NCBI RefSeq assembly: GCF_041365945.1
Contig: NZ_JBGFSK010000017.1
Span: 2,555-12,733, forward strand
From: Janibacter sp. GXQ6167
GTDB taxonomy: Bacteria > Actinomycetota > Actinomycetes > Actinomycetales > Dermatophilaceae
DNA length: 10,179 nt
Direction: 5' to 3'
In this document: one piece after another, positions 1,236 through 9,919 of the stretch
Numbering within the stretch: position 1 is the first letter of the stretch
How the letters are laid out: every line of letters starts with the position of its first letter
The notes under the pieces: generated by a model
Told to the model about the DNA's origin: nothing
Database searches by the model: none
Seen by the model: the letters and a program-made list of their open reading frames with translations, nothing else
Made by a program: the position numbers and the translations under genes

Positions 1236-1653
1236 CGATAAGACGGGCGACGTTGCGGCTGACGAGTTCGTCGCGCATCGCGCGGGTCAGGGCGGCGGAC
1301 AGTACGGTGCGGAACTTCTGTGCGGTGCGGATTGAGTGGCCCTCGTCGAGCAGCGCGCAGGCGGCGTTCTGCACGTCGCGCACGGTGAGCTGGGTCAGGC
1401 GCTTGCTGCCGATGCGAGGAAGGATGTGCAGTCGCACGACGCCCTCGTATCCCCGTGCGGTGTTGCGTCGGTTGCGGCGCGGCACGACTGTCTCTAGCCA
1501 CTGCTGCAGATAGCCGGCGACCGTGACCTGTGAGTTCGGGGTCAGGATGCCGCGGCCCTCGTGCCGCGGCCCGCCCGGGCGCTTGCGTCGCCTTGCGACC
1601 CGCCGGATCGGCTCGAAAAGACGTTCTGTGGTATATCTATTACGAGAGGCCAT
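1236..1653 (-). pseudogene. Tyrosine recombinase/phage integrase, N-terminal SAM-like (core-binding) domain only; catalytic domain removed by the IS insertion
   Basis: Part of track ORF 1204-1857 (-). The segment TVAGYLQQWLETVVPRRNRRNTARGYEGVVRLHILPRIGSKRLTQLTVRDVQNAACALLDEGHSIRTAQKFRTVLSAALTRAMRDELVSRNVARLI matches the integrase N-terminal SAM-like pattern. The last 11 codons and the stop (GLFTNEGVVG*) are encoded by the IS terminal repeat. ATG at 1653 is the first plausible start. No R..HxxR..Y catalytic domain is present. Confidence 0.85.
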
Positions 1654-1661
1654 ATACAGGA
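1635..1661 (+). promoter_or_regulatory. AT-rich motif copy A (ATCTATT-N7-GCCATATACAGGA), upstream of the six-gene cluster; candidate operator or promoter element
   Basis: ATCTATT lies at 1635-1641 and GCCATATACAGGA at 1649-1661. The same 7-mer and 13-mer occur contiguously on the minus strand at 9283-9264, upstream of the XRE gene. This is one of very few AT-rich patches in the window. The site lies ~55 nt upstream of the GTG start at 1715. Confidence 0.5.
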
Positions 1662-1714
1662 TGCACCTGGGCCTTGTCTGGGGGCTACCCAGATCGAGTC
1701 TGGAGGTGTACGGC

Positions 1715-2329
1715 GTGGCCGCGCGAGTCGTCGATGTGCGTTGTCCGGGATGCGGGAGCGCCTGGAGCACCAACCAGCAGTTCTGCCAGTACTGCGGTCG
1801 CCAGGTGCTGATCAGCTCGATGTCCGACCTGATCAGCCTGGAAGCGCGCGACCTCAAGAAGCACGTCCGTACCTACGAGGACGCGCTGGACGAGGGCGCC
1901 GATGATCCGAGCGTGCATGCGGCGCTCGGCATGTGCCTGCTCAAGCTGGGGCTGCGCGACAAGGCGCTGTCGCACTTCGAGGATGCGCTGCTCGATGACA
2001 TCGAGAACTCGGAACCGTACTTCTACGCCGCCGTCGCGTCGCTGGGTGGCAAGAAGCCGTTCCTGGTTCCGCTGGCTGGCATCCGCCGCGCGGAGGAGTA
2101 CCTCACGGCGGCGCTGCGGCTCGAGGAGCGCGGAATCTACGCCTACCTCTACGGGTACATCCGCTTCGACTACTACGAGCGCAAGTCGCTGAACGTCGAG
2201 CCGTCGTACCAGCACTACCTGCAGCAGGCAGTGCTTCGCGGTGTGACCGATCTGGACATCCAGACGCTGTTCGAGCTGCTGGAGATCGTCCCTTCGTCCG
2301 CTTCCATTCCGACCAGCGTTTCCGCCTGA
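1715..2329 (+). CDS. Zn-ribbon plus TPR-like repeat protein (hypothetical)
   Basis: Track ORF 1523-2329. I place the start at GTG 1715, which has GGAGG at 1702-1706 with an 8-nt spacer. In-frame alternatives are ATG 1661 and GTG 1736. The N-terminus carries CPGCGSAWSTNQQFCQYCG (CxxC-x11-CxxC zinc ribbon). HAALGMCLLKLGLRDKALSHFEDAL is a textbook TPR-like helix pair. The rest is helical and shows high-GC third-position codon use. Confidence 0.8.
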   Translation: MAARVVDVRCPGCGSAWSTNQQFCQYCGRQVLISSMSDLISLEARDLKKHVRTYEDALDEGADDPSVHAALGMCLLKLGLRDKALSHFEDALLDDIENSEPYFYAAVASLGGKKPFLVPLAGIRRAEEYLTAALRLEERGIYAYLYGYIRFDYYERKSLNVEPSYQHYLQQAVLRGVTDLDIQTLFELLEIVPSSASIPTSVSA

Positions 2330-2365
2330 CCCCTGTTCTAACCACCCGAGAGAGGTTCCTTCGCA

Positions 2366-3061
2366 ATGGCCATCAACTATGAGCGCAACAAGAAGTACTT
2401 CAAGCAGTCCAGCCCCAAGGCCGGCATCATCCTGATCGTGATCGGCCTGGTGCTGACGCTCGCCCTCCCCGAGGCGGGCAAGCTCGTCGGCATCCTGGGC
2501 ATCCTGGGTGGCGCGGCGCTGATCTACTTCCAGTTCGCGGGCAAGCCGAGCGACGCGGACATCGACTCGGACGCTGCTGCCGCCATCGCGGACGTGAAGA
2601 AGCGCGCGCTGGGCAAGCTCGGTCTGGACGAGGACGAGGTCAAGCTCATCGACCCGGTGATCGTTCACGGCTACTACTACAAGAACATCGCCTCGGGCGT
2701 GCAGGTCAAGCTCGGCAAGGACCGCGTCTTCCGTTCCTCGAACTACGAGGGCGTCGTGCTGTTCTTCAGCGAGCACCAGCTGCACGCGTTCAAGTTCCAG
2801 TTCTCTCTCGTCTCGCCGCAGGAGAGCCGCGAGCAGACCGACGAGTACTTCTACAAGGACGTCGTGTCGGTGGCGACGCAGTCGGAGACGTTCAAGATCA
2901 ACGACATCAAGGGCAACAGCCAGCAGGTCAACTTCGAGGAGTTCAAGCTCACCACCACGGGTGGCACCTCGATCACTTCGTCGATCCGCGACGAGGGCTC
3001 GGTCAGCCGCGTCATCTCCGGCGCGCGCAGCCTGATTCGCGAGAAGAAGATCGCGTCCTGA
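2366..3061 (+). CDS. Membrane protein: N-terminal 2-TM hairpin plus beta-rich soluble C-terminal domain (possibly PH-like); function unknown
   Basis: ATG 2366 has GAGAGAGG ~10 nt upstream. The TM segments are AGIILIVIGLVLTLALP and LVGILGILGGAALIYFQF (about 2420-2536). The C-domain has alternating strand-like segments (VIVHGYYY, VVLFFSEHQLHAFKFQFSL, EYFYKDVVSVAT, FKLTTTGGTSI). I recognise no catalytic motif. Confidence 0.85.
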   Translation: MAINYERNKKYFKQSSPKAGIILIVIGLVLTLALPEAGKLVGILGILGGAALIYFQFAGKPSDADIDSDAAAAIADVKKRALGKLGLDEDEVKLIDPVIVHGYYYKNIASGVQVKLGKDRVFRSSNYEGVVLFFSEHQLHAFKFQFSLVSPQESREQTDEYFYKDVVSVATQSETFKINDIKGNSQQVNFEEFKLTTTGGTSITSSIRDEGSVSRVISGARSLIREKKIAS

Positions 3062-3076
3062 CCCCGAGTTCTCTGC

Positions 3077-3115
3077 GTGCCGGGGCCGGTCGGCAGTCGC
3101 CACCGGCTCCGGCAC
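3077..3115 (+). promoter_or_regulatory. Intergenic GC-rich stem-loop (14-bp stem, 11-nt loop); possible partial terminator, attenuator or RNA-stability element
   Basis: GTGCCGGGGCCGGT (3077-3090) pairs with ACCGGCTCCGGCAC (3102-3115). There are 13 Watson-Crick pairs plus one G-U. It sits in the only sizeable intergenic gap of the cluster (3062-3156). No U-tract follows. Confidence 0.5.
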
Positions 3116-3156
3116 ACCAATTCCGCTGCCCGAGCGTGACGTGAGGAGTGTGCCGT

Positions 3157-5841
3157 ATGCCCGCAGGCGACGCGCCCCTGACGTTCACGCCTCTCGCGCA
3201 GGGTGAAGTAGCCGCTGCTACGGTGGTCGAGGTCGTCCGCATCCCGCACGTCTCCGTGCTGGGCGATGATCCGGCTGCCGAGCTGGTGCAGCAGTCCAAG
3301 CGGGACTTCGTCAGCCTGCTGTTCGAGGCGTACCAGTCGTACCGCGGACAGTACGAGGACGGCCCCGACCGAGCTAGCGACTGCGCTCTGGAACTGCTTT
3401 GGCAAGCACACCCCATTCAGGGCCAGCCGCACGCCGCCGACCTCACGCTATTCATCATCGTTCGCGCGATCGGCGCGAACCGGGACGACGCAGCGGCGGT
3501 TGTCAACGAGCTGCACGCTGTCGTGATCAGCGCGCTCACGCTCGGCGGCTTCGACTACGCAGATCGTCCTGCCTCCGCGATCGGCGCCCAGGCGGCGGAA
3601 CGGTCGGTTGCGCTCGTGAAGGAGGAGTGGATTGAGAACCTCGGCAACCAGATCCTGCCGAGCGCCTTCGCCTTCCACCGTATCCCCACGGGCAGCCGTG
3701 ATCTCTCACGTATCGCCAGCGCCCTAACCGAGGTGCCCGGTGCGTCCCTCTCGGTTCAGCTGATCCCGGCGACACTGGAGCCTGACGAGCGGACTGCTAT
3801 CGAGCAGCTGACGCTGGCGCTCACGACCCTCGCCAACGGTGTGACGGATCAGTCGATCGGTACCGTCAGCTTCACCGCGGCGAAGCGCCTCGCGGAGATG
3901 TACTCGTATCTGGAGGGGCACAAGGACTCGCCCCTGTTTCTGTTTAACGTCGTCGTCTCCGGGCCGAAGCTCGCCGTGCCGGTGATCGCCAACCGGGTGC
4001 TCGGTCACCTCTCCGCCGACGCCGAGGTAGGCGCGCTGGCGGCACGCTTCGTCGACGCCACAGCCCTGGTGCCACGAGGCGATGCGTCCTTCGTCGCTGC
4101 ACCGTGGCAGCTGAACGAGACGCTGCTCGACCAGACTCGTGATCCGTCGCTCTGGGCGGCGGGCCGCAATCCCGGTGAGGCATTCTACCGGCTGCCGTTC
4201 CTGCTGACGGCATTCGAGGCATCGGAGTTGTTCCGTCTGCCGATCGGCAGTGACACGGTCGGCGCCGGGCTGACGGTGAACACCACGACCCGGCACTCGC
4301 GCAACTACTCGGCCGGCGTGATCGGGAGCTCGAGCATCGAAGCCGGGCGACTCGCCGGGGCGGCCGAGGTCTCGATCGGGTTCGGGCATACCGACCTGAC
4401 CAAGCACGCTTTCGTCACGGGGACGCCCGGTTCGGGTAAGACGACGTTCACGGTCGGGCTGCTCGACCGGCTCTGGCACGAGCACGGCATCCCGTATCTG
4501 GTGATCGAGCCGGCGAAGAACGAGTACCGGGCGCTGATCGAGACGACGCCGGATCTGCAGGTGTTCACCCCGGGCAAGGATCATCTGTCTCCGCTTGTGC
4601 TGAACCCGTTCCTGCCGCCAGCGGGCGTGCGGGTGCAGAGCTACAAGTCGACCCTCAAGACGGCGTTCGCAGCCGCGGTCACGATGACGAGCCCCCTGGA
4701 CAAGATCTTCGAGGACGCCCTCTCAGCCACGTACTCGCGGTTTGGCTGGTTCGATGCCGACACAGCCGCCGATGGCCGTGAGGTGTTCTCTATCCGCGAC
4801 TTCCTGGCCGTTTTCCAGGAGACCTTCGTCCGCATCGGCTACACCGGAGACGCGGCCAACATCGGACGAGCAGGCCAGGTGCGCCTGCAGAGTCTGGTTG
4901 GCCTGTTCGACACCTACCCTTCGATCCCTGTCGAGGATCTGCTGTCGAAACCCACGGTAATCGAGCTGGCAGGGATCGAGAACAGCGACGACAAGGCCCT
5001 CTACATCGCGCTCATCCTGCTGCAGGTCCTCGCCTACGTGAACGCCAACGTCGCCGGCGACGGGAAACTCAAGCACGTCCTCCTGCTCGAAGAAGCCCAC
5101 GTCTTGCTCGACGCCGACGACGCCAGCGGACCGGGCGAAGCGGACCCCGCCGCGATTGCGAAGAAGCTGCTCAAACGCATGTTGGCCGAGATCCGCTCCT
5201 ACGGCGTCGGCATCATCGTGGCCGATCAGTCGCCACGCAAGGTCGGCTCGGACGTGGTGGCGCTCACGAACATCAAGCTCGGGTTCCGGCTGGTCGAGGC
5301 CGCAGACAAGGAGATCCTGGCCGAGAGCACCAACATGAGCGACGCGCAGCGCGAGCGGCTGGCGCGGCTCCGGCCGGGCGAGGCACTCCTGTTCTACGAC
5401 CGCCTCGAAGACCCCGAGGAGATCGCCACAGCCGACTGGCGCGCCCAGCGCGGCATCCCGACGTTCGTGTCCGATGAGGAGATCGCCCGAAAGGTCACTT
5501 ACTGGCAGCGGCACCCGGAACTGCTCATGCCATACCCGGAGAGCGCCTACATCGGGGGCTGGGACGCCTCGGTTGCCGGTGCGGGCAAGGAGATCGCCCG
5601 GCGCCTCTTCGCCGCGCACGTCCCGGCCGGCGATGTCGGCGTCAAGAGATTCGGCAGCATCTACCGGCAGCTCGATGCGTTCATCGCCGCCGAACTTCCC
5701 GCGTCGATCCCGAACACGCCGGCCCTGCGGCGAGCGGTCAAGGTCAACTTCCTGCGGCTGGTCAAGTACGAGTCGCAGATCCCACTGTCGGACGCCACGA
5801 TCCACAAGACCCTCGAAGCCGAGAGGAGCCGCACAGCATGA
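3157..5841 (+). CDS. HerA/FtsK-superfamily P-loop ATPase (DUF87/HerA-like C-terminal half) with a ~420-aa uncharacterised N-terminal region
   Basis: Track ORF 3148-5841. ATG 3157 is preferred, with GAGGAG at 3143-3148 and an 8-nt spacer. Walker A is GTPGSGKTT (4420-4446). YLVIEPAKNEYRAL follows it. Walker B is VLLLEEAH (5077-5100). IIVADQSPRKV, TNIKLGFRL and LRPGEALLF match the motif order of HerA-type hexameric ATPases. Confidence 0.93.
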   Translation: MPAGDAPLTFTPLAQGEVAAATVVEVVRIPHVSVLGDDPAAELVQQSKRDFVSLLFEAYQSYRGQYEDGPDRASDCALELLWQAHPIQGQPHAADLTLFIIVRAIGANRDDAAAVVNELHAVVISALTLGGFDYADRPASAIGAQAAERSVALVKEEWIENLGNQILPSAFAFHRIPTGSRDLSRIASALTEVPGASLSVQLIPATLEPDERTAIEQLTLALTTLANGVTDQSIGTVSFTAAKRLAEMYSYLEGHKDSPLFLFNVVVSGPKLAVPVIANRVLGHLSADAEVGALAARFVDATALVPRGDASFVAAPWQLNETLLDQTRDPSLWAAGRNPGEAFYRLPFLLTAFEASELFRLPIGSDTVGAGLTVNTTTRHSRNYSAGVIGSSSIEAGRLAGAAEVSIGFGHTDLTKHAFVTGTPGSGKTTFTVGLLDRLWHEHGIPYLVIEPAKNEYRALIETTPDLQVFTPGKDHLSPLVLNPFLPPAGVRVQSYKSTLKTAFAAAVTMTSPLDKIFEDALSATYSRFGWFDADTAADGREVFSIRDFLAVFQETFVRIGYTGDAANIGRAGQVRLQSLVGLFDTYPSIPVEDLLSKPTVIELAGIENSDDKALYIALILLQVLAYVNANVAGDGKLKHVLLLEEAHVLLDADDASGPGEADPAAIAKKLLKRMLAEIRSYGVGIIVADQSPRKVGSDVVALTNIKLGFRLVEAADKEILAESTNMSDAQRERLARLRPGEALLFYDRLEDPEEIATADWRAQRGIPTFVSDEEIARKVTYWQRHPELLMPYPESAYIGGWDASVAGAGKEIARRLFAAHVPAGDVGVKRFGSIYRQLDAFIAAELPASIPNTPALRRAVKVNFLRLVKYESQIPLSDATIHKTLEAERSRTA

Positions 5842-7019
5842 GCGACTACGGCACCGACATTGCAGACGCCCCCGTCGACACCGGCGCGGACGTCAGCGTG
5901 CCCGATACGACCGACTACGCCGACGAGCCGGTCGACCTGGCCGAGACCCCGCCCGAGTCGGAGGCGCCCGAGGCCGAGGAGGCGCCGCCCGCCGAAGACC
6001 TCTCGGAGCCCGCAGCAGATGAACTGAGCGGCACGGCGGAGACGCCGGCGGATGCGGAGGCACCCGTCGACCTGGGCGCGGCCCCGGAAACGGCCGACGC
6101 CGCCCCGGAACAGCCCCAGGACTGGCAGGAGGGCGAGGTCGTCGATCTCGGCGACGACGCTGCCCCCGACGCCCCGCAGGAGGACGAGACCGCCGAGGCG
6201 GACGATCCTGCCGGGCGCGACCTGGGTGATCCCGACCTGGCCGACAGCCCGGAGGCCGAGGCTCCCACGGATAGCGCCGGTGAGGATCTGACGACACCGA
6301 CGGACGACGAACCGGGCGCCGGTGATGCGCCGACTGACGCCGACGAGCAGGTACCTGAGGCGGCGGAGATTGAGCCCGAGGCCGCAAACGACGTGACGGA
6401 TGCCGAACCCGAGCCCAGGGTCGATGAGTTGACAGAGGCGGCCCGGGATGAGGCCCGCCCCGCCGACGAGCTGCGCGCCGAGTACTACGCCGACGTGGCT
6501 GATGTGCTGGCCGATGACACACCATCCGACGCCGAGCCGGTCGAGACGCAGGACACTCCCGGAGCAGACGCTGCCGAGGCGCCGGAGTCGAGCGATCACG
6601 CGGACGCCGCCAATGACCGCAGCAACTCCCCAGAGAACGAGGCACTGACCTCGGCGCTAGCCGAGAAAGGCCTGTCGCTGGAGCCGGTCGATCGCTTCGA
6701 CTACAGCGACAACCCGGTTCTCGGCTACCGCGAGTCCGCCCCGCCCGAAGACGTCGCGTACGCCGTCAACGCCTGGAACGACGAGATCGCGCCCGGCATC
6801 GCGGCCGGCGCGACCCGTGAGGACTTCGCCGCCTACGACCAGGAGCACGGCCTCGAAGGGCAGCGGCAGCTGGCCGGCGTCTACGACTACATGCTCGGCG
6901 GCGACGCGATCAAGAGCGGCGGAGAGCGCGAGGACGGATCGCTCGACGTCACCGGCGGCAGGCACCGCCTGGAACAGGCGCGTCTGAACGGCGTCCAGTA
7001 CCTGCCCGTGAGGAAGTAG
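5838..7019 (+). CDS. Hyper-acidic, low-complexity protein with a C-terminal ParB/Srx-like (GxHR) domain; function unknown
   Basis: ATG 5838 overlaps the ATPase stop (ATGA), and GAGGAG lies at 5823-5828. By hand count the first ~270 aa hold about 89 D/E, 6 R and 0 K, and are rich in P, A and T. The last ~115 aa are ordinary in composition. They end DGSLDVTGGRHRLEQARLNGVQYLPV, which resembles the ParB-N/sulfiredoxin-fold signature (x-G-x-H-R-x2-A-x4-G-x4-P-V). Confidence 0.85.
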   Translation: MSDYGTDIADAPVDTGADVSVPDTTDYADEPVDLAETPPESEAPEAEEAPPAEDLSEPAADELSGTAETPADAEAPVDLGAAPETADAAPEQPQDWQEGEVVDLGDDAAPDAPQEDETAEADDPAGRDLGDPDLADSPEAEAPTDSAGEDLTTPTDDEPGAGDAPTDADEQVPEAAEIEPEAANDVTDAEPEPRVDELTEAARDEARPADELRAEYYADVADVLADDTPSDAEPVETQDTPGADAAEAPESSDHADAANDRSNSPENEALTSALAEKGLSLEPVDRFDYSDNPVLGYRESAPPEDVAYAVNAWNDEIAPGIAAGATREDFAAYDQEHGLEGQRQLAGVYDYMLGGDAIKSGGEREDGSLDVTGGRHRLEQARLNGVQYLPVRK

Positions 7020-7056
7020 CCGACCCGGCATCCGATCCGACGAAAGCGAACACCGT

Positions 7057-8256
7057 ATGAAGATCTACGACGTCATCAAGAACGAGACCGGCCTTCTCAA
7101 CGACGGCCTGGGCTCGAAGGCCGTGCTGGCGTGGAAGTTCACCGGTGAGGACTTCAACGACAACACGCAGCTGATCGTCTCCGAATCGGAGGAGGCGATC
7201 TTCATCCGCGACGGCATCGCCGTGGCGACCTTCGGCGGCGGCCGCTACACGCTCAACAGCAACAACCACCCCTTCATCGGCAGGCTGAGGAACCTGCTCT
7301 CCGGCGGGGTGAGCGCGTTCAGCTCGCGGGTGTACTTCGTCAACATCGATCACAAGTTGGAACTGCTGTGGGGCACCGACAGCCCGATCCAGCTCCGCGA
7401 CCCGGTCTGGAGCCTGCAGACCAGCGTGCAGGCGCGCGGCTCGTACTCGATCCAGGTGACGGACTCCAAGAAGTTCCTGATCAAACTGCTCGGCACCAAC
7501 ATCCAGGTTTTCGACGAGCAGCAGCTCGCCGGCTACTTCCGCAGCGCCTTCTCGCAGCACATCCGCGGACAGATCGCCCGCTACATCCGCGACTCCGGCC
7601 AGGAGATCCTGGAGATCACCTCGGACATCGAGCTGCTGGCCGAGCAGCTGCACCCGAGGCTCGCACCGCTGCTGGATGAGTACGGCGTGAAGCTCGTCAA
7701 CTTCTACATCGCCGCGATCGACATCCCCACCGACGACCCGAACCGCCAAGTGCTGGAGAACTCGATCGCACAGAAGCAGGCCAAGCTGCAGAGCGCGCAG
7801 GGCGATAAGGCCGTCATGGGGCTGCTCGGGGAAGACTGGGCCAGGCAGCAGTCGGCCACCATCCTCACCGAGCTCGCCAAGAACCCCGGCGCGGGTGGCG
7901 TGGCTTCCGCGGGTGCCGCAGCAGGCGTTGGCCTGGCTGCGGGCAGCGTCTTCGGGGAGATGGCGACGCAGATGTTCACGCGCCCCGTCCAGCCCGCAGG
8001 CGACCCGATGGCTGGCAATGTCGGGCGCAACCGCACATCGCGCTTCTCGCCCGCAGAGCCTGCCGCGCCGGCCGCCGCCGAGACGTGTCCGGGCTGCGGC
8101 GCGAGCGTGGCGGCGGGAGCGAAGTTCTGCCCGGAGTGCGGCAACCGTCTCGCACCTCAGCAGGTGCCCTGCTCGGGTTGCGGAACCGCAATCGCGAGCA
8201 CGGCCAAGTTCTGCCCCGAATGCGGAACGCCGAACAACCAGGGAGCATCCTCATGA
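7057..8256 (+). CDS. SPFH/band-7 family protein of the YdjI (COG4260-like) type with a C-terminal double zinc ribbon
   Basis: The N-terminal ~235 aa (MKIYDVIKNE...WKFTGEDFNDNTQLIVSESEEAIFIRDG...YFVNIDHKLELLWGT...RGSYSIQVTD...VKLVNFYIAAIDIP) match the YdjI / virion-core-protein-like SPFH family pattern. A Gly/Ala-rich segment GAGGVASAGAAAGVGLAAGSVFG follows (about 7885-7956). Then come two ribbons, CPGCG-x9-FCPECG and CSGCG-x9-FCPECG (8086-8232). Confidence 0.93.
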   Translation: MKIYDVIKNETGLLNDGLGSKAVLAWKFTGEDFNDNTQLIVSESEEAIFIRDGIAVATFGGGRYTLNSNNHPFIGRLRNLLSGGVSAFSSRVYFVNIDHKLELLWGTDSPIQLRDPVWSLQTSVQARGSYSIQVTDSKKFLIKLLGTNIQVFDEQQLAGYFRSAFSQHIRGQIARYIRDSGQEILEITSDIELLAEQLHPRLAPLLDEYGVKLVNFYIAAIDIPTDDPNRQVLENSIAQKQAKLQSAQGDKAVMGLLGEDWARQQSATILTELAKNPGAGGVASAGAAAGVGLAAGSVFGEMATQMFTRPVQPAGDPMAGNVGRNRTSRFSPAEPAAPAAAETCPGCGASVAAGAKFCPECGNRLAPQQVPCSGCGTAIASTAKFCPECGTPNNQGASS

Positions 8257-8930
8257 CCCGCACGATCCTGCGCGCCATCCTGTGGCTCGTCCCCATCGCC
8301 GTCTACGTCGCCATCTTCCTCATCCTCGAGGCCCCGCAGGGCGCGACGTTCTGGACGTCCGCACTGCTGCTGGCGTTCGCCTACGTCATGCTCGCCGTCA
8401 GTTTCGTCGCCGTGCCGCGCAGTCGGATAGCCGCGATCCTGGCCATGCCCCTGATCCTGGTGGCGAGCATCTACTTCACTGCCGAGCTCATCGCGGCCAG
8501 CATCTTCATCTACGTGCAGGACATTCCATACCCGTGGGTGATCATCACGCAGCTGATCCTGGCCGCGATCTTCCTCGTCGTGTTCCTCACCACCTTGTTG
8601 TCCAACGAGGCCATCGCCGCCCAGATCGAGACCCAGCACGCCGACGTCCTGGTGATCAAGAGCGCCGTCACCCGCATCACGGCCCTGGGACGTGTCGCCC
8701 ACGATCCGCGCCTGGCGAAGTCGCTGGACGGGCTGGCCGAGGAGTTCCGCTACAGCCCGACGATGCGCTCGAACCAGGTGCGCGAAGTCGACGCGCAGAT
8801 CGCCGTGCAGCTCGAGCGACTGGAGAGCCTCGTCCACATCCAAGCTTCGCAAGAGGATACCGTCGGCCAGATCGCGGCGATATCCGGGGCGCTCGCTTCA
8901 CGCAACGAGGCGATCAAGCTCCGCCAGTAG
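8253..8930 (+). CDS. Integral membrane protein (4 predicted TM helices) with a helical C-terminal domain; function unknown
   Basis: ATG 8253 overlaps the SPFH stop (ATGA), and GGGAG lies 7 nt upstream. There are four long hydrophobic segments (ILRAILWLVPIAVYVAIFLIL, FWTSALLLAFAYVMLAVSFVAV, IAAILAMPLILVASIYFTAELIAASIFIYV, WVIITQLILAAIFLVVFLTTLL). About 110 aa of amphipathic helix follow. The longer track ORF from 8085 overlaps the SPFH gene out of frame, so I reject it. Confidence 0.85.
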   Translation: MTRTILRAILWLVPIAVYVAIFLILEAPQGATFWTSALLLAFAYVMLAVSFVAVPRSRIAAILAMPLILVASIYFTAELIAASIFIYVQDIPYPWVIITQLILAAIFLVVFLTTLLSNEAIAAQIETQHADVLVIKSAVTRITALGRVAHDPRLAKSLDGLAEEFRYSPTMRSNQVREVDAQIAVQLERLESLVHIQASQEDTVGQIAAISGALASRNEAIKLRQ

Positions 8931-9226
8931 GAGGAGGTGCATAGGGCAGACCCGCGCGCAGATCCGGCCACGGCTGCGGCACCAGCTGGTCGAGCGTGAC
9001 ACCGAGCACCTGCGCGATGGCCATGATCTTGCGCAGACTCGGGTTGGCCGGAGTCTCCGGCATCGACTCGCCCTTCTCGAACTTCTGGAAGGTGTAGCGC
9101 GTGAGCCCAGCGGCGTAGGCAACCTGCTCCTGGGTGAGTCCACGGTCGATCCGGTGCCGCTGAATGCTGGCACCAAGTTCGCGCGCGTACTGGGGCCAAG
9201 GGCCATCGGGTCGTCGTTTTTGCCAT
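8914..9226 (-). pseudogene. XRE-family helix-turn-helix transcriptional regulator, apparent +1 frameshift near the 5' end (or assembly indel)
   Basis: Not in the ORF track. The minus-strand frame open from 9225 to 8917 encodes ...PQYARELGASIQRHRIDRGLTQEQVAYAAGLTRYTFQKFEKGESMPETPANPSLRKIMAIAQVLGVTLDQLV...*. This is a classic Cro/C1-type HTH, but it has no start codon upstream of the HTH. ATG at 9226-9224 is in the adjacent frame. Deleting one A from the AAAAA run (9216-9220, plus-strand TTTTT) gives an intact 103-aa protein beginning MAKRRPDGPWPQYARELG. The span is 313 nt, which is 3n+1. Confidence 0.75.
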
Positions 9227-9376: not shown

Positions 9377-9919
9377 TCAAGGCCGGGGCGAACTCCCGAG
9401 CAGGGCGTGCAGCTGATGGCTGGCTGGTGAGACGGCGCGAATGCGGGTCTCGTGGAGGGCGGGGTCGTGCGTGCGCAGGTACATCGCCCAGAACGCCGCG
9501 TCGGCATACGTTGTGTGCAGATCTGACTGCGCCCGCCAGCCGCTCGAAGCGGTGCGCCGGTAGCCGACTTCGTAAGGGCCGCCATGCAGGAGTTCCTGCA
9601 CGAGTGATGCCGGGACGTCACCGACCGGGTAGGTGCTGCCGATATCGCCCACGAGGAGCACGTCGCCGTGCAACGCCGGCCGCTGCCTTGAAGTGGTGTC
9701 CCAGAACCAGCGCAGCGACGAGGCGCGCAGGTTCATCGGGAGCCCGTTTCGGCGGTCGTCGGCGTCGAGCCACATCGTGACACCTCGGCTCTCGATGTCG
9801 ATCGGGATCACCAGATCAGCGAGCTGCTGAATGTCTGCGAACCCTGCGACCTCCCGCGTTTCGAGTTGTTGCTCGATCTGCGCCGGGATGAGAACAGCCG
9901 TGACGGTCTCACCATTCAC
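9377..9919 (-). CDS. Hypothetical protein with an N-terminal DUF3846-like domain
   Basis: Track ORF with a GTG start at 9919. VTAVLIPAQIEQQLETREVAGFADIQQLADLVIPIDIESRGVTMWLDADDRRNGLPMNLRAS...GDVLLVGDIG follows the DUF3846 pattern as I recall it (ALLIP...V..LQ.LVGG.IE......LW.NEEG...GLP.N.RA....G..l..G). The C-terminal ~80 aa are unassigned. Confidence 0.6.
   Translation of the reverse strand: MNGETVTAVLIPAQIEQQLETREVAGFADIQQLADLVIPIDIESRGVTMWLDADDRRNGLPMNLRASSLRWFWDTTSRQRPALHGDVLLVGDIGSTYPVGDVPASLVQELLHGGPYEVGYRRTASSGWRAQSDLHTTYADAAFWAMYLRTHDPALHETRIRAVSPASHQLHALLGSSPRP

Follow-up and report, generated by a model that had tools for sequence, protein, structure and literature searches.

The window analysed here, a 10,179-nt stretch of DNA from Janibacter sp. 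GXQ6167 (RefSeq assembly GCF_041365945.1, contig NZ_JBGFSK010000017.1, positions 2,555 to 12,733 of the forward strand), contains a gene at 5838 to 7019 on the forward strand encoding a hyper-acidic protein of 393 residues. The gene belongs to a conserved, horizontally spread six-gene system, in which it follows the gene for a HerA/FtsK-superfamily ATPase and precedes that for an SPFH protein. Its product consists of three modules, i.e. a short N-terminal motif, a polyanionic disordered region whose charge rather than sequence is conserved, and an exchangeable C-terminal warhead. As this protein occupies a variable slot that carries classic bacterial toxins at other loci, it looks like the cargo of a toxin machine. 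We therefore read the acidic gene as the variable cargo or effector of the system, with the warhead carried on a polyanionic handle that is recognised by an ATPase–SPFH machine, and assign a probability of about 55% to this composite reading.

The slot was characterised from the contexts of selected homologues and from a scan of 185,579 species genomes, which returned 144 relatives of the ATPase; 80 loci were fetched, and loci are referred to by L numbers. Gene order was constant (ATPase, slot, SPFH, membrane protein), and in each of the 55 loci with both anchor genes the slot was followed by the SPFH gene. The slot protein was hyper-acidic, defined as a net charge of −20 or lower and of −0.15 per residue or lower, in 52 of these 55 loci, with a median net charge of −112 (−0.26 per residue) and an extreme of −395. 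The three exceptional proteins were still acidic (−23 to −46). The medians of the five conserved neighbour proteins lay between −0.02 and 0 per residue, indicating that the acidity of the slot is more than chance. Slot proteins ranged from 125 to 1298 residues and their acidic regions from about 100 to about 1000 residues. Some of those from Firmicutes consisted of acidic tandem repeats, such as 'DIPEDVPEDAPVDETDDLDG' in a protein with a net charge of −275, and in L007 the acidic toxin gene appears to be split into several called genes across the repeat region.

The C-terminal ends of the slot proteins are highly diverse. The last 200 residues of about 64 proteins fell into 31 sequence clusters, and several contained toxin domains that scored above the Pfam thresholds: WHH and Colicin-DNase in L036 and L089, an ADP-ribosyltransferase exoenzyme (ADPrib_exo_Tox) in L054 and L056, and a papain-fold glutamine deamidase (Gln_amidase) in L044 and L030. 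Others carried a HEMWH metallopeptidase-like motif. Small open reading frames (ORFs) downstream of the slot co-varied with the type of warhead; warhead cluster 0 was followed by ORF cluster I0 in five of six loci, cluster 6 by I1 in three of three and cluster 8 by I2 in two of two. The ORF at 9797–10207 of L089, which directly follows the acidic toxin with the WHH and Colicin-DNase domains, encodes a SUKH (SMI1/KNR4) immunity protein (67 bits compared to a cut-off of 27). Taken as a whole, the locus family thus combines a trafficking part, hypervariable C-termini and co-varying immunity genes, as polymorphic toxin systems do. L089 also encodes a second acidic protein with a HEMWH metallopeptidase-like domain and a 99-residue partner, so that its slot is made up of two cassettes. 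In some slots the acidic toxin is separated from the ATPase by paralogous polytopic membrane proteins, one to five in number and each about 150–210 residues long (L079 9706–12819, L015 4743–5300, L054 9684–10799 and L061 9706–10179). These proteins had no Pfam match, and they could be immunity proteins against membrane-acting toxins or extra parts of a translocon.

In the window, the acidic gene begins with an ATG that overlaps the stop codon of the ATPase gene as ATGA (5838–5841, sequence GCATGAGC), and a Shine–Dalgarno-like purine tract containing GGAG, GAGAGGAG, lies 10–17 nt upstream of the start. The overlap is 4 nt in the related loci L001 and L003 and 8 nt in L005. GC contents of 0.80, 0.49 and 0.85 at the three codon positions show the pattern of a genuinely coding frame where genomic GC is high. 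The frame is further confirmed by conserved homologues, since the C-terminal domain is 92% identical in protein P0121 and in L011. Residues 1–270 contain 48 Asp and 41 Glu but only 6 Arg and no Lys (net charge −83), together with 55 Ala, 33 Pro and 19 Thr; the complete protein has a net charge of −93 and an isoelectric point of about 4.05. A preceding sequence-only reading of this DNA had arrived by hand at the same count of 89 acidic residues, 6 Arg and no Lys. It had also noticed the ATGA overlap and taken it as a sign of translational coupling to the ATPase; the overlap is present, but as a means of coupling it is specific to the actinobacterial lineage. Searches of the 393-residue protein against Pfam, PADLOC, NCBIfam and PHROGs gave no match.

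Residues 1–262 (5838–6623, forward strand) form a hyper-acidic, Pro/Ala/Thr-rich region that is predicted to be intrinsically disordered. Its mean hydropathy of 0.397 falls far below the Uversky boundary of 0.524, in the range of natively unfolded proteins, and in the full-length AlphaFold model residues 1–190 had a predicted local distance difference test score (pLDDT) of about 40 and no secondary structure. The region has no strict tandem period, as Tandem Repeats Finder returned just three trivial 2-copy matches. Within the actinobacterial lineage the charge of the acidic region stayed between −0.21 and −0.32 per residue while its identity to the window protein dropped from 67% to 17% with many indels; over the same range the C-terminal domain went from 92% to 48% identity and was almost gapless. 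Disorder and the lack of a strict repeat had already been noted from the sequence, and the retention of charge despite sequence drift answers, in favour of charge conservation, a test that the sequence-only reading had proposed. An 84-nt indel separates the window (at about 6336) from its 89%-identical relative L011 (10189–10273), indicating rapid length change in the disordered part.

Two short elements of the acidic region are conserved. The protein begins with MSDYGTD (5838–5858), an instance of the motif M-x-[DE]-[EYD]-[FY]-[DE] that is common to slot proteins across phyla. In position-wise counts over 55 N-termini, 45 had an aromatic residue at positions 3–7, compared to 26% expected from composition. 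The second element is a predicted amphipathic helix of low confidence (residues 195–226, VDELTEAARDEARPADELRAEYY..., 6420–6515, pLDDT 54–62). It is the sole conserved island in the acidic region, with an invariant P193 and the consensus 'EP..DELTEAAR.EAR' (alignment A4), and could be a second docking element.

The acidic region is followed by a globular domain comprising residues 264–393 (6627–7016). The full-length model had block-mean pLDDT values of at least 90 for residues 261–393, apart from a dip to 67 at about 291–300, and AlphaFold prediction of the domain with its family alignment gave a pLDDT of 95.2. In the predicted topology a first strand is followed by three helices, two strands, a helix and a last strand, which contains the core order of the ParB/sulfiredoxin (Srx) superfamily (strand 1, helices, strand 2, strand 3, helix, strand 4). 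All of the top 13 Foldseek matches were ParB, Noc or Srx structures, including CTP-bound ParB, Noc and sulfiredoxin, although with weak E-values and a TM-score of about 0.4. The closest structural matches include the kinases SerK and SbnI as well as the CTP switches ParB, Noc and KorB. A family profile searched against PDB sequences gave sub-threshold matches to SbnI (E = 0.046) and to Noc and ParB (0.25–0.3), and five of the top eight were superfamily members aligned on '...G-x-H-R...A...G....P-V'. A phmmer match of the domain to a carbonic-anhydrase repeat in PDB sequences (E = 0.29) was spurious. Pfam, including ParBc (PF02195), gave no match to the window protein at E ≤ 0.1, nor to 27 homologues at E ≤ 0.01. 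As the AlphaFold model, the Foldseek matches and the profile matches on the motif agree, we accept the predicted domain as a divergent ParB/sulfiredoxin fold, one too divergent for Pfam ParBc.

The G-x-H-R motif of this domain consists of G374-R375-H376-R377, which is encoded by nucleotides 6957–6968 close to the C-terminus (...DVTGGRHRLEQARLNGVQYLPVRK), and it is placed at the last strand-to-helix junction of the model. In the motif alignment it stands opposite DGVHR of SbnI and GERR of ParB/Noc, and it is the equivalent of ParB GxxR and Srx GCHR, and probably of the DGHHR of Tox-ParB domains. Exhaustive HMMER searching of residues 264–393 against 1.8 billion cluster representatives (E ≤ 1e-3) identified a family of 239 representatives, with the domain C-terminal in 148 of the 150 listed; a word-indexed homologue search found none with the domain as query and only 15 proteins with the family profile. 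The family motif is [GN]-G-[RYQ]-H-R. G324, D334, G367, G374, H376, R377 and P390 (protein numbering) were invariant in alignments of 34 and 27 sequences (the motif as G111, H113 and R114 of alignment A2), and W313, P319, D350, G354, A381 and G385 were nearly so. The resemblance to the ParB/Srx fold that the sequence-only reading had suggested is thus supported, and homologues retain GxHR. The family is acidic to neutral overall (median net charge −4, n = 124; −9 for the window domain), a property more in keeping with an enzyme that acts on nucleotides than with a protein that sticks to DNA.

The same domain also occurs on a second type of carrier. The C-terminal domains of P0125, P0126, P0128 and P0129 are 66–72% identical to that of the window protein, and they are attached to short, Ala-rich helical N-termini with a net charge of about zero. 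In the two such loci examined, L009 (P0126) and L010 (P0276, 32% identical to the window domain), the ParB-like gene follows an FtsK_SpoIIIE ATPase gene and genes for two helical proteins of about 86–90 residues. The ATPase of L009 was considered as a member of the window ATPase family, but no BLAST match was found between them, indicating that the acidic-slot and FtsK/SpoIIIE contexts are distinct. Polymorphic toxins are defined by this kind of exchange, in which a single C-terminal cassette is found on N-terminal carriers that are unrelated to one another. The helical pairs upstream of the ParB-like gene (about 80–90 residues; L009 4713–5245 and L010 7133–7665) have a central 'GGSAQ' turn. 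They are similar in size to WXG100 proteins and lack a Pfam match; they may be an unannotated family of substrates resembling those of the type VII secretion system. Of 27 non-acidic homologues, two gave weak WXG100 matches. A second, related ParB-like family with the signature 'DGRHR..AA.ELG.DIP' was found in acidic slot proteins outside Actinobacteria. In a protein of the Firmicute Mediterraneibacter (L028 9741–12749, residues 514–633) it is internal, with a different domain at the C-terminus, and in one from Coriobacteriales (L090 5295–6443, residues 262–378) it is itself C-terminal, with a weak link to the family of the window (E of about 2e-7 and 2e-3 in a small database).

The remaining five genes of the cluster are all on the forward strand. 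The first encodes a Zn-ribbon and TPR protein of 204 residues with a GTG start (1715–2329), assigned from sub-threshold Pfam DZR and TPR matches and from orthologues, which were 39–87% identical in L001, L003, L005 and L006 and were mapped in 30 loci. It is followed by memA (2366–3061), which encodes 231 residues comprising an N-terminal hairpin of two predicted transmembrane segments (hydropathy, residues 19–37 and 37–55) and a soluble domain, and which also has orthologues. The ATPase gene extends from an ATG at 3157 to 5841 (894 residues). Its product matches Pfam DUF87 with 29 bits, above the cut-off of 23.2, and has a single Walker A motif (GTPGSGKT, at about 4420–4443) that is invariant in alignment A3. 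Matches to PADLOC HerA/mad8 and NCBIfam CedD/HerA models were all far below the curated cut-offs (37.2 bits compared to 800 for HerA_antiphage). The ATPase family is unusually conserved, with 1596 homologues at E ≤ 1e-10 and about 48% identity between phyla. Downstream of the slot, the SPFH gene (7057–8256) encodes a Band_7_1 protein (116.9 bits) with a C-terminal double zinc ribbon (DZR, 40.8 bits). Its stop codon overlaps the start of memB as ATGA (8253–8256), and with this second overlap two gene pairs of the cluster appear to be translationally coupled. memB (8253–8930) encodes a polytopic membrane protein of 225 residues with four or five hydrophobic segments and a coiled-coil-like C-terminal tail, and has orthologues in 49 loci. 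Transmembrane predictions associate three of the cluster partners with the membrane.

The same five flanking genes were found in Actinomycetota, Bacillota, Bacteroidota, Planctomycetota, Spirochaetota, Kiritimatiellia/Victivallales, Desulfovibrionaceae and Acholeplasmataceae, so that the cluster is conserved across at least eight phyla; many of the ATPase matches were from gut and rumen bacteria. Several loci are on integrative or mobilisable elements with an integrase, a relaxase or MobC. A phage origin was considered and dropped, as the system is practically absent from phages, with one relative in 2.9 million viral contigs. Positions 1574–9191 of the window have 88.5–90% DNA identity to the chromosome of Microbacterium sp. 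HA-8. As this similarity starts only at 1574, a mobile-element scar or island boundary may adjoin the cluster; the left end (1–1574) includes a Zn-ribbon fragment of an ISL3-type transposase as well as an integrase ORF that matches N-terminal SAM-like and central domains only (538–960 and 1204–1857, both on the reverse strand). Downstream of the cluster is a DUF3846-like gene (9377–9919, reverse strand; 25.4 bits, just below the 27.5-bit cut-off), which is also present in Microbacterium HA-8, where an additional 2.7 kb or so separates it from the cluster. In Oscillospiraceae versions the gene directly upstream of that for the ATPase is YidD-like (membrane protein insertion efficiency factor; L006 7468–7953, L007 3260–3466). 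An encapsulin (Linocin_M18) and Dyp peroxidase gene pair about 6 kb upstream of the cluster in L003 (1065–2885) is probably unrelated.

These data can be assembled into a working model. The ATPase would be co-produced with its cargo through the ATGA overlap and would dock on the SPFH and membrane proteins. This would happen at a membrane site that the SPFH/Zn-ribbon protein forms together with the two membrane proteins, in analogy to the recruitment of YdjI/SamI by YdjG/H in B. subtilis. HerA/FtsK pumps normally handle a polyanion, DNA. For this reason we propose that the ATPase could recognise the N-terminal motif of the cargo and engage or thread its DNA-like polyanionic chain. The warhead would be delivered, or else concentrated at the membrane, export being the step that we infer, and would then act on a target cell or an invader, either as a nuclease or as an NTP-dependent phosphotransferase. 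In its strongest form this model would make the cluster an undescribed protein-translocation system, in which a HerA/FtsK-type pump threads the polyanionic handle at an SPFH-organised membrane site and carries interchangeable toxins (ParB-like, DNase, ADP-ribosyltransferase, deamidase, protease) out, a possibility that we put forward tentatively.

Several observations weigh against the cargo reading. No immunity-like gene follows the ParB-type gene of the window, where 37 nt separate the stop at 7019 from the SPFH gene at 7057; no small ORF follows the ParB-type genes in L011, L014 and L090, and none was evident in L009 and L010. The C-terminal domain family is acidic to neutral, which would be odd for a non-specific DNase, and hydropathy analysis found no credible transmembrane segment in the ATPase. 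The system has the same form in monoderm and diderm phyla, an outer-membrane component is not obvious, and many slot proteins from Bacteroidota are short (125–250 residues), wholly acidic and devoid of a globular domain or warhead. From this distribution and from the warhead-less versions it follows that toxin export is not the universal core function of the cluster. Our doubts accordingly concern the lacking immunity gene beside the ParB type, the identity of the system in monoderms and diderms, the versions lacking a warhead, and export itself, which we infer.

One alternative, which we consider unlikely, is that the system acts inside the cell by abortive infection. The ATPase and SPFH protein would sense invading DNA or a perturbation of the membrane; the effector would be parked on the ATPase by its DNA-mimicking tether until displacement by real DNA leaves the ParB-like or other toxin free to arrest or kill its infected host cell. 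Pairs of a HerA-family ATPase and an effector are a known form of defence, and the sub-threshold PADLOC HerA/mad8 matches point in this direction. Neighbouring genes also include ones of mobile-element or defence type, namely the integrase fragment and DUF3846-like gene in the window, NERD-UvrD in L003, a TnsA-like gene in L001, and NACHT, integrase and relaxase genes in L006. The absence of an immunity gene beside the ParB type and the same core in monoderms and diderms also favour such a mechanism. However, toxins of this slot are followed by dedicated co-varying small genes, including SUKH, which is the hallmark of toxins aimed at other cells and not of effectors that kill their own cell. 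Moreover, the system invariably includes an SPFH protein and two integral membrane proteins, no PADLOC model matches any component other than the ATPase, and the curated HerA scores are far under the cut-off.

It is also unlikely that the polyanion is itself the product, with the machine placing or exporting an acidic polymer as a surface or periplasmic polyanion, scaffold or plug, and with the ParB/Srx-like domain serving as a non-toxic accessory, an NTP-dependent switch or kinase comparable to ParB-CTP, SerK or SbnI. Acidity is the sole universal property of the slot, and the Bacteroidota proteins without a globular domain would be explained directly. Kinases and CTP switches are among the closest structural matches of the C-terminal domain, which has an acidic surface and is not accompanied by an immunity gene. 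The unmistakable toxins with immunity genes in the Firmicutes slots speak against this explanation, as does the shuffling of the ParB-like domain between two unrelated N-terminal carriers in the manner of a toxin cassette.

The sequence-only reading had offered, as one plausible view, that the acidic tail is a mask, i.e. a cis-acting DNA mimic that covers the DNA- or NTP-binding ParB/Srx domain until activation. As an intramolecular antitoxin, such a mask would explain why no immunity-like ORF follows the ParB-type proteins, and an extremely negative tail does adjoin a domain from a DNA-associated superfamily. Nevertheless, equally acidic regions precede ADP-ribosyltransferase, glutamine-deamidase, metallopeptidase-like and HNH domains, or stand alone, indicating that the role of the acidic region is generic to the system and not specific to ParB. 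The ParB-like domain also occurs without an acidic region in the FtsK/SpoIIIE-linked homologues, and in the AlphaFold2 model the tail does not pack against the domain. Since the domain has a negative charge of its own (net −9), a polyanion is not likely to mask it electrostatically. The data thus do not support a specific mask, and this model appears very improbable. Finally, although several long overlapping ORFs occur on both strands of this GC-rich region, the notion that the gene is a chance open frame or a low-complexity, non-functional remnant is refuted by the conservation data, i.e. orthologues in the same position at every related locus and a C-terminal domain that is conserved in 239 clusters and folds at a pLDDT of 95, as well as by the codon-position GC, the overlap of its start with the ATPase stop and the upstream GGAG.

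Should the cargo reading hold, polymorphic toxin systems would have a new mode of trafficking, in which the address is the charge density of a disordered chain together with a short N-terminal motif. This address would be read by a HerA/FtsK-family ATPase with an SPFH protein, which would be a concrete and testable instance of a polyanionic protein being moved or engaged by a 'DNA pump', and a function would be given to a very widespread gene cluster. The acidic handle could then serve as a modular tag for export or targeting. For the ParB/Srx field, the domain represents a compact family of 239 clusters with an invariant GxHR that is shuffled between two delivery contexts, with NTPase, kinase and nuclease as candidate chemistries. 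No description of the cluster or of acidic-handle toxins was found in full-text searches of open-access papers, although an earlier description may exist.

Comparison with known systems places these features as follows. B. subtilis membrane proteins YdjG/H recruit the Band_7_1 SPFH protein YdjI/SamI to the membrane (bioRxiv 10.64898/2026.02.06.704340; PMC8581546). Like that system (YdjG-YdjH-YdjI, or SamGHI), the window encodes a cytosolic SPFH protein of the Band_7_1 type together with a Zn-ribbon protein and a membrane protein. It differs in that PspA is missing, the SPFH and TPR proteins carry the Zn ribbons as fusions, and an ATPase and an acidic cargo are added. Known DNA mimics such as Ocr and ArdA are compact folded proteins with carboxylates arranged in a B-DNA-like pattern. 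They share a very high density of Asp and Glu and a location on mobile elements with the window region, but the latter is Pro-rich, of very variable length (about 100–1000 residues) and predicted to be disordered. With residues 1–190 at a pLDDT of about 40, and neither length nor sequence conserved, it does not class with the folded mimics.

Anti-phage pairs such as Sir2-HerA and DUF4297-HerA have a similar layout, in that the effector gene comes right after a HerA-like ATPase gene, and even overlaps it here. The proposal that the acidic protein is an effector linked to a HerA-like ATPase remains plausible, but the analogy to these pairs is loose. The window has a six-gene, membrane-associated cluster whose effectors are polymorphic and have immunity genes, the acidic disordered region has no counterpart in the pairs, the ATPase scores 37.2 bits against a cut-off of 800, and its partner has no PADLOC match. 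The resemblance to type VII secretion (LXG/WXG toxins, EssC/EccC) is that a HerA/FtsK-superfamily ATPase is encoded beside toxins with variable C-termini and small immunity genes, and that the N-terminal part of the toxin is a system-specific address. However, the window ATPase has a single P-loop domain and no transmembrane segment, whereas those of the EssC/EccC type are membrane-anchored and multi-domain. It is accompanied by an SPFH protein, a TPR/Zn-ribbon protein and two small membrane proteins, a polyanionic disordered region takes the place of the helical hairpin as address, and diderm phyla have the system as well. Pfam detects no WXG or LXG domain in the window protein, which together with the single Walker A motif and the lack of a credible transmembrane segment in the ATPase places the system outside type VII secretion.

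The C-terminal domain has the same order of strands and helices as proteins belonging to the ParB/Srx superfamily (ParB/Noc/KorB, sulfiredoxin, SerK/SbnI and Osa/PadC), a like motif site at the junction of strand 3 and the following helix (DGVHR in SbnI, GERR in ParB/Noc, GCHR in Srx), and a 'D-N-P' loop after strand 1 that resembles the N-P-x-x-P-R box of ParB. It is distinguished by the lack of a Pfam ParBc match, three helices between strands 1 and 2, an acidic surface, and an end just after strand 4, with no helix-turn-helix or dimerisation domain; the window locus lacks both a ParA partner and a parS context. Section 25 of Zhang et al. 2012 (PMC3482391) catalogues toxin domains of the ParB fold that have a DGHHR motif, among them ones linked to type VII secretion (WXG) in Actinobacteria. 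Both these Tox-ParB domains, as described in that section, and the window domain are C-terminal ParB folds with an H-R motif behind interchangeable trafficking N-termini, the window domain likewise being found on two carriers, one hyper-acidic and one neutral and helical. Compared to the D-G-H-H-R of that section, the window family has [GN]-G-[RYQ]-H-R, in which H-R is conserved but the Asp and first His are not, and the window lacks an adjacent gene for Imm20, Imm27 or SuFu. Its carrier is a hyper-acidic disordered region, which is absent from the tabulated trafficking modes examined in PMC3482391, in which text searches for 'acidic' and 'HerA' gave no such mode. Thus, the fold and ParB-type toxins are known, while the compact G-x-H-R family is new and, above all, so is a hyper-acidic disordered carrier tied to an ATPase/SPFH/TPR/membrane-protein cluster.

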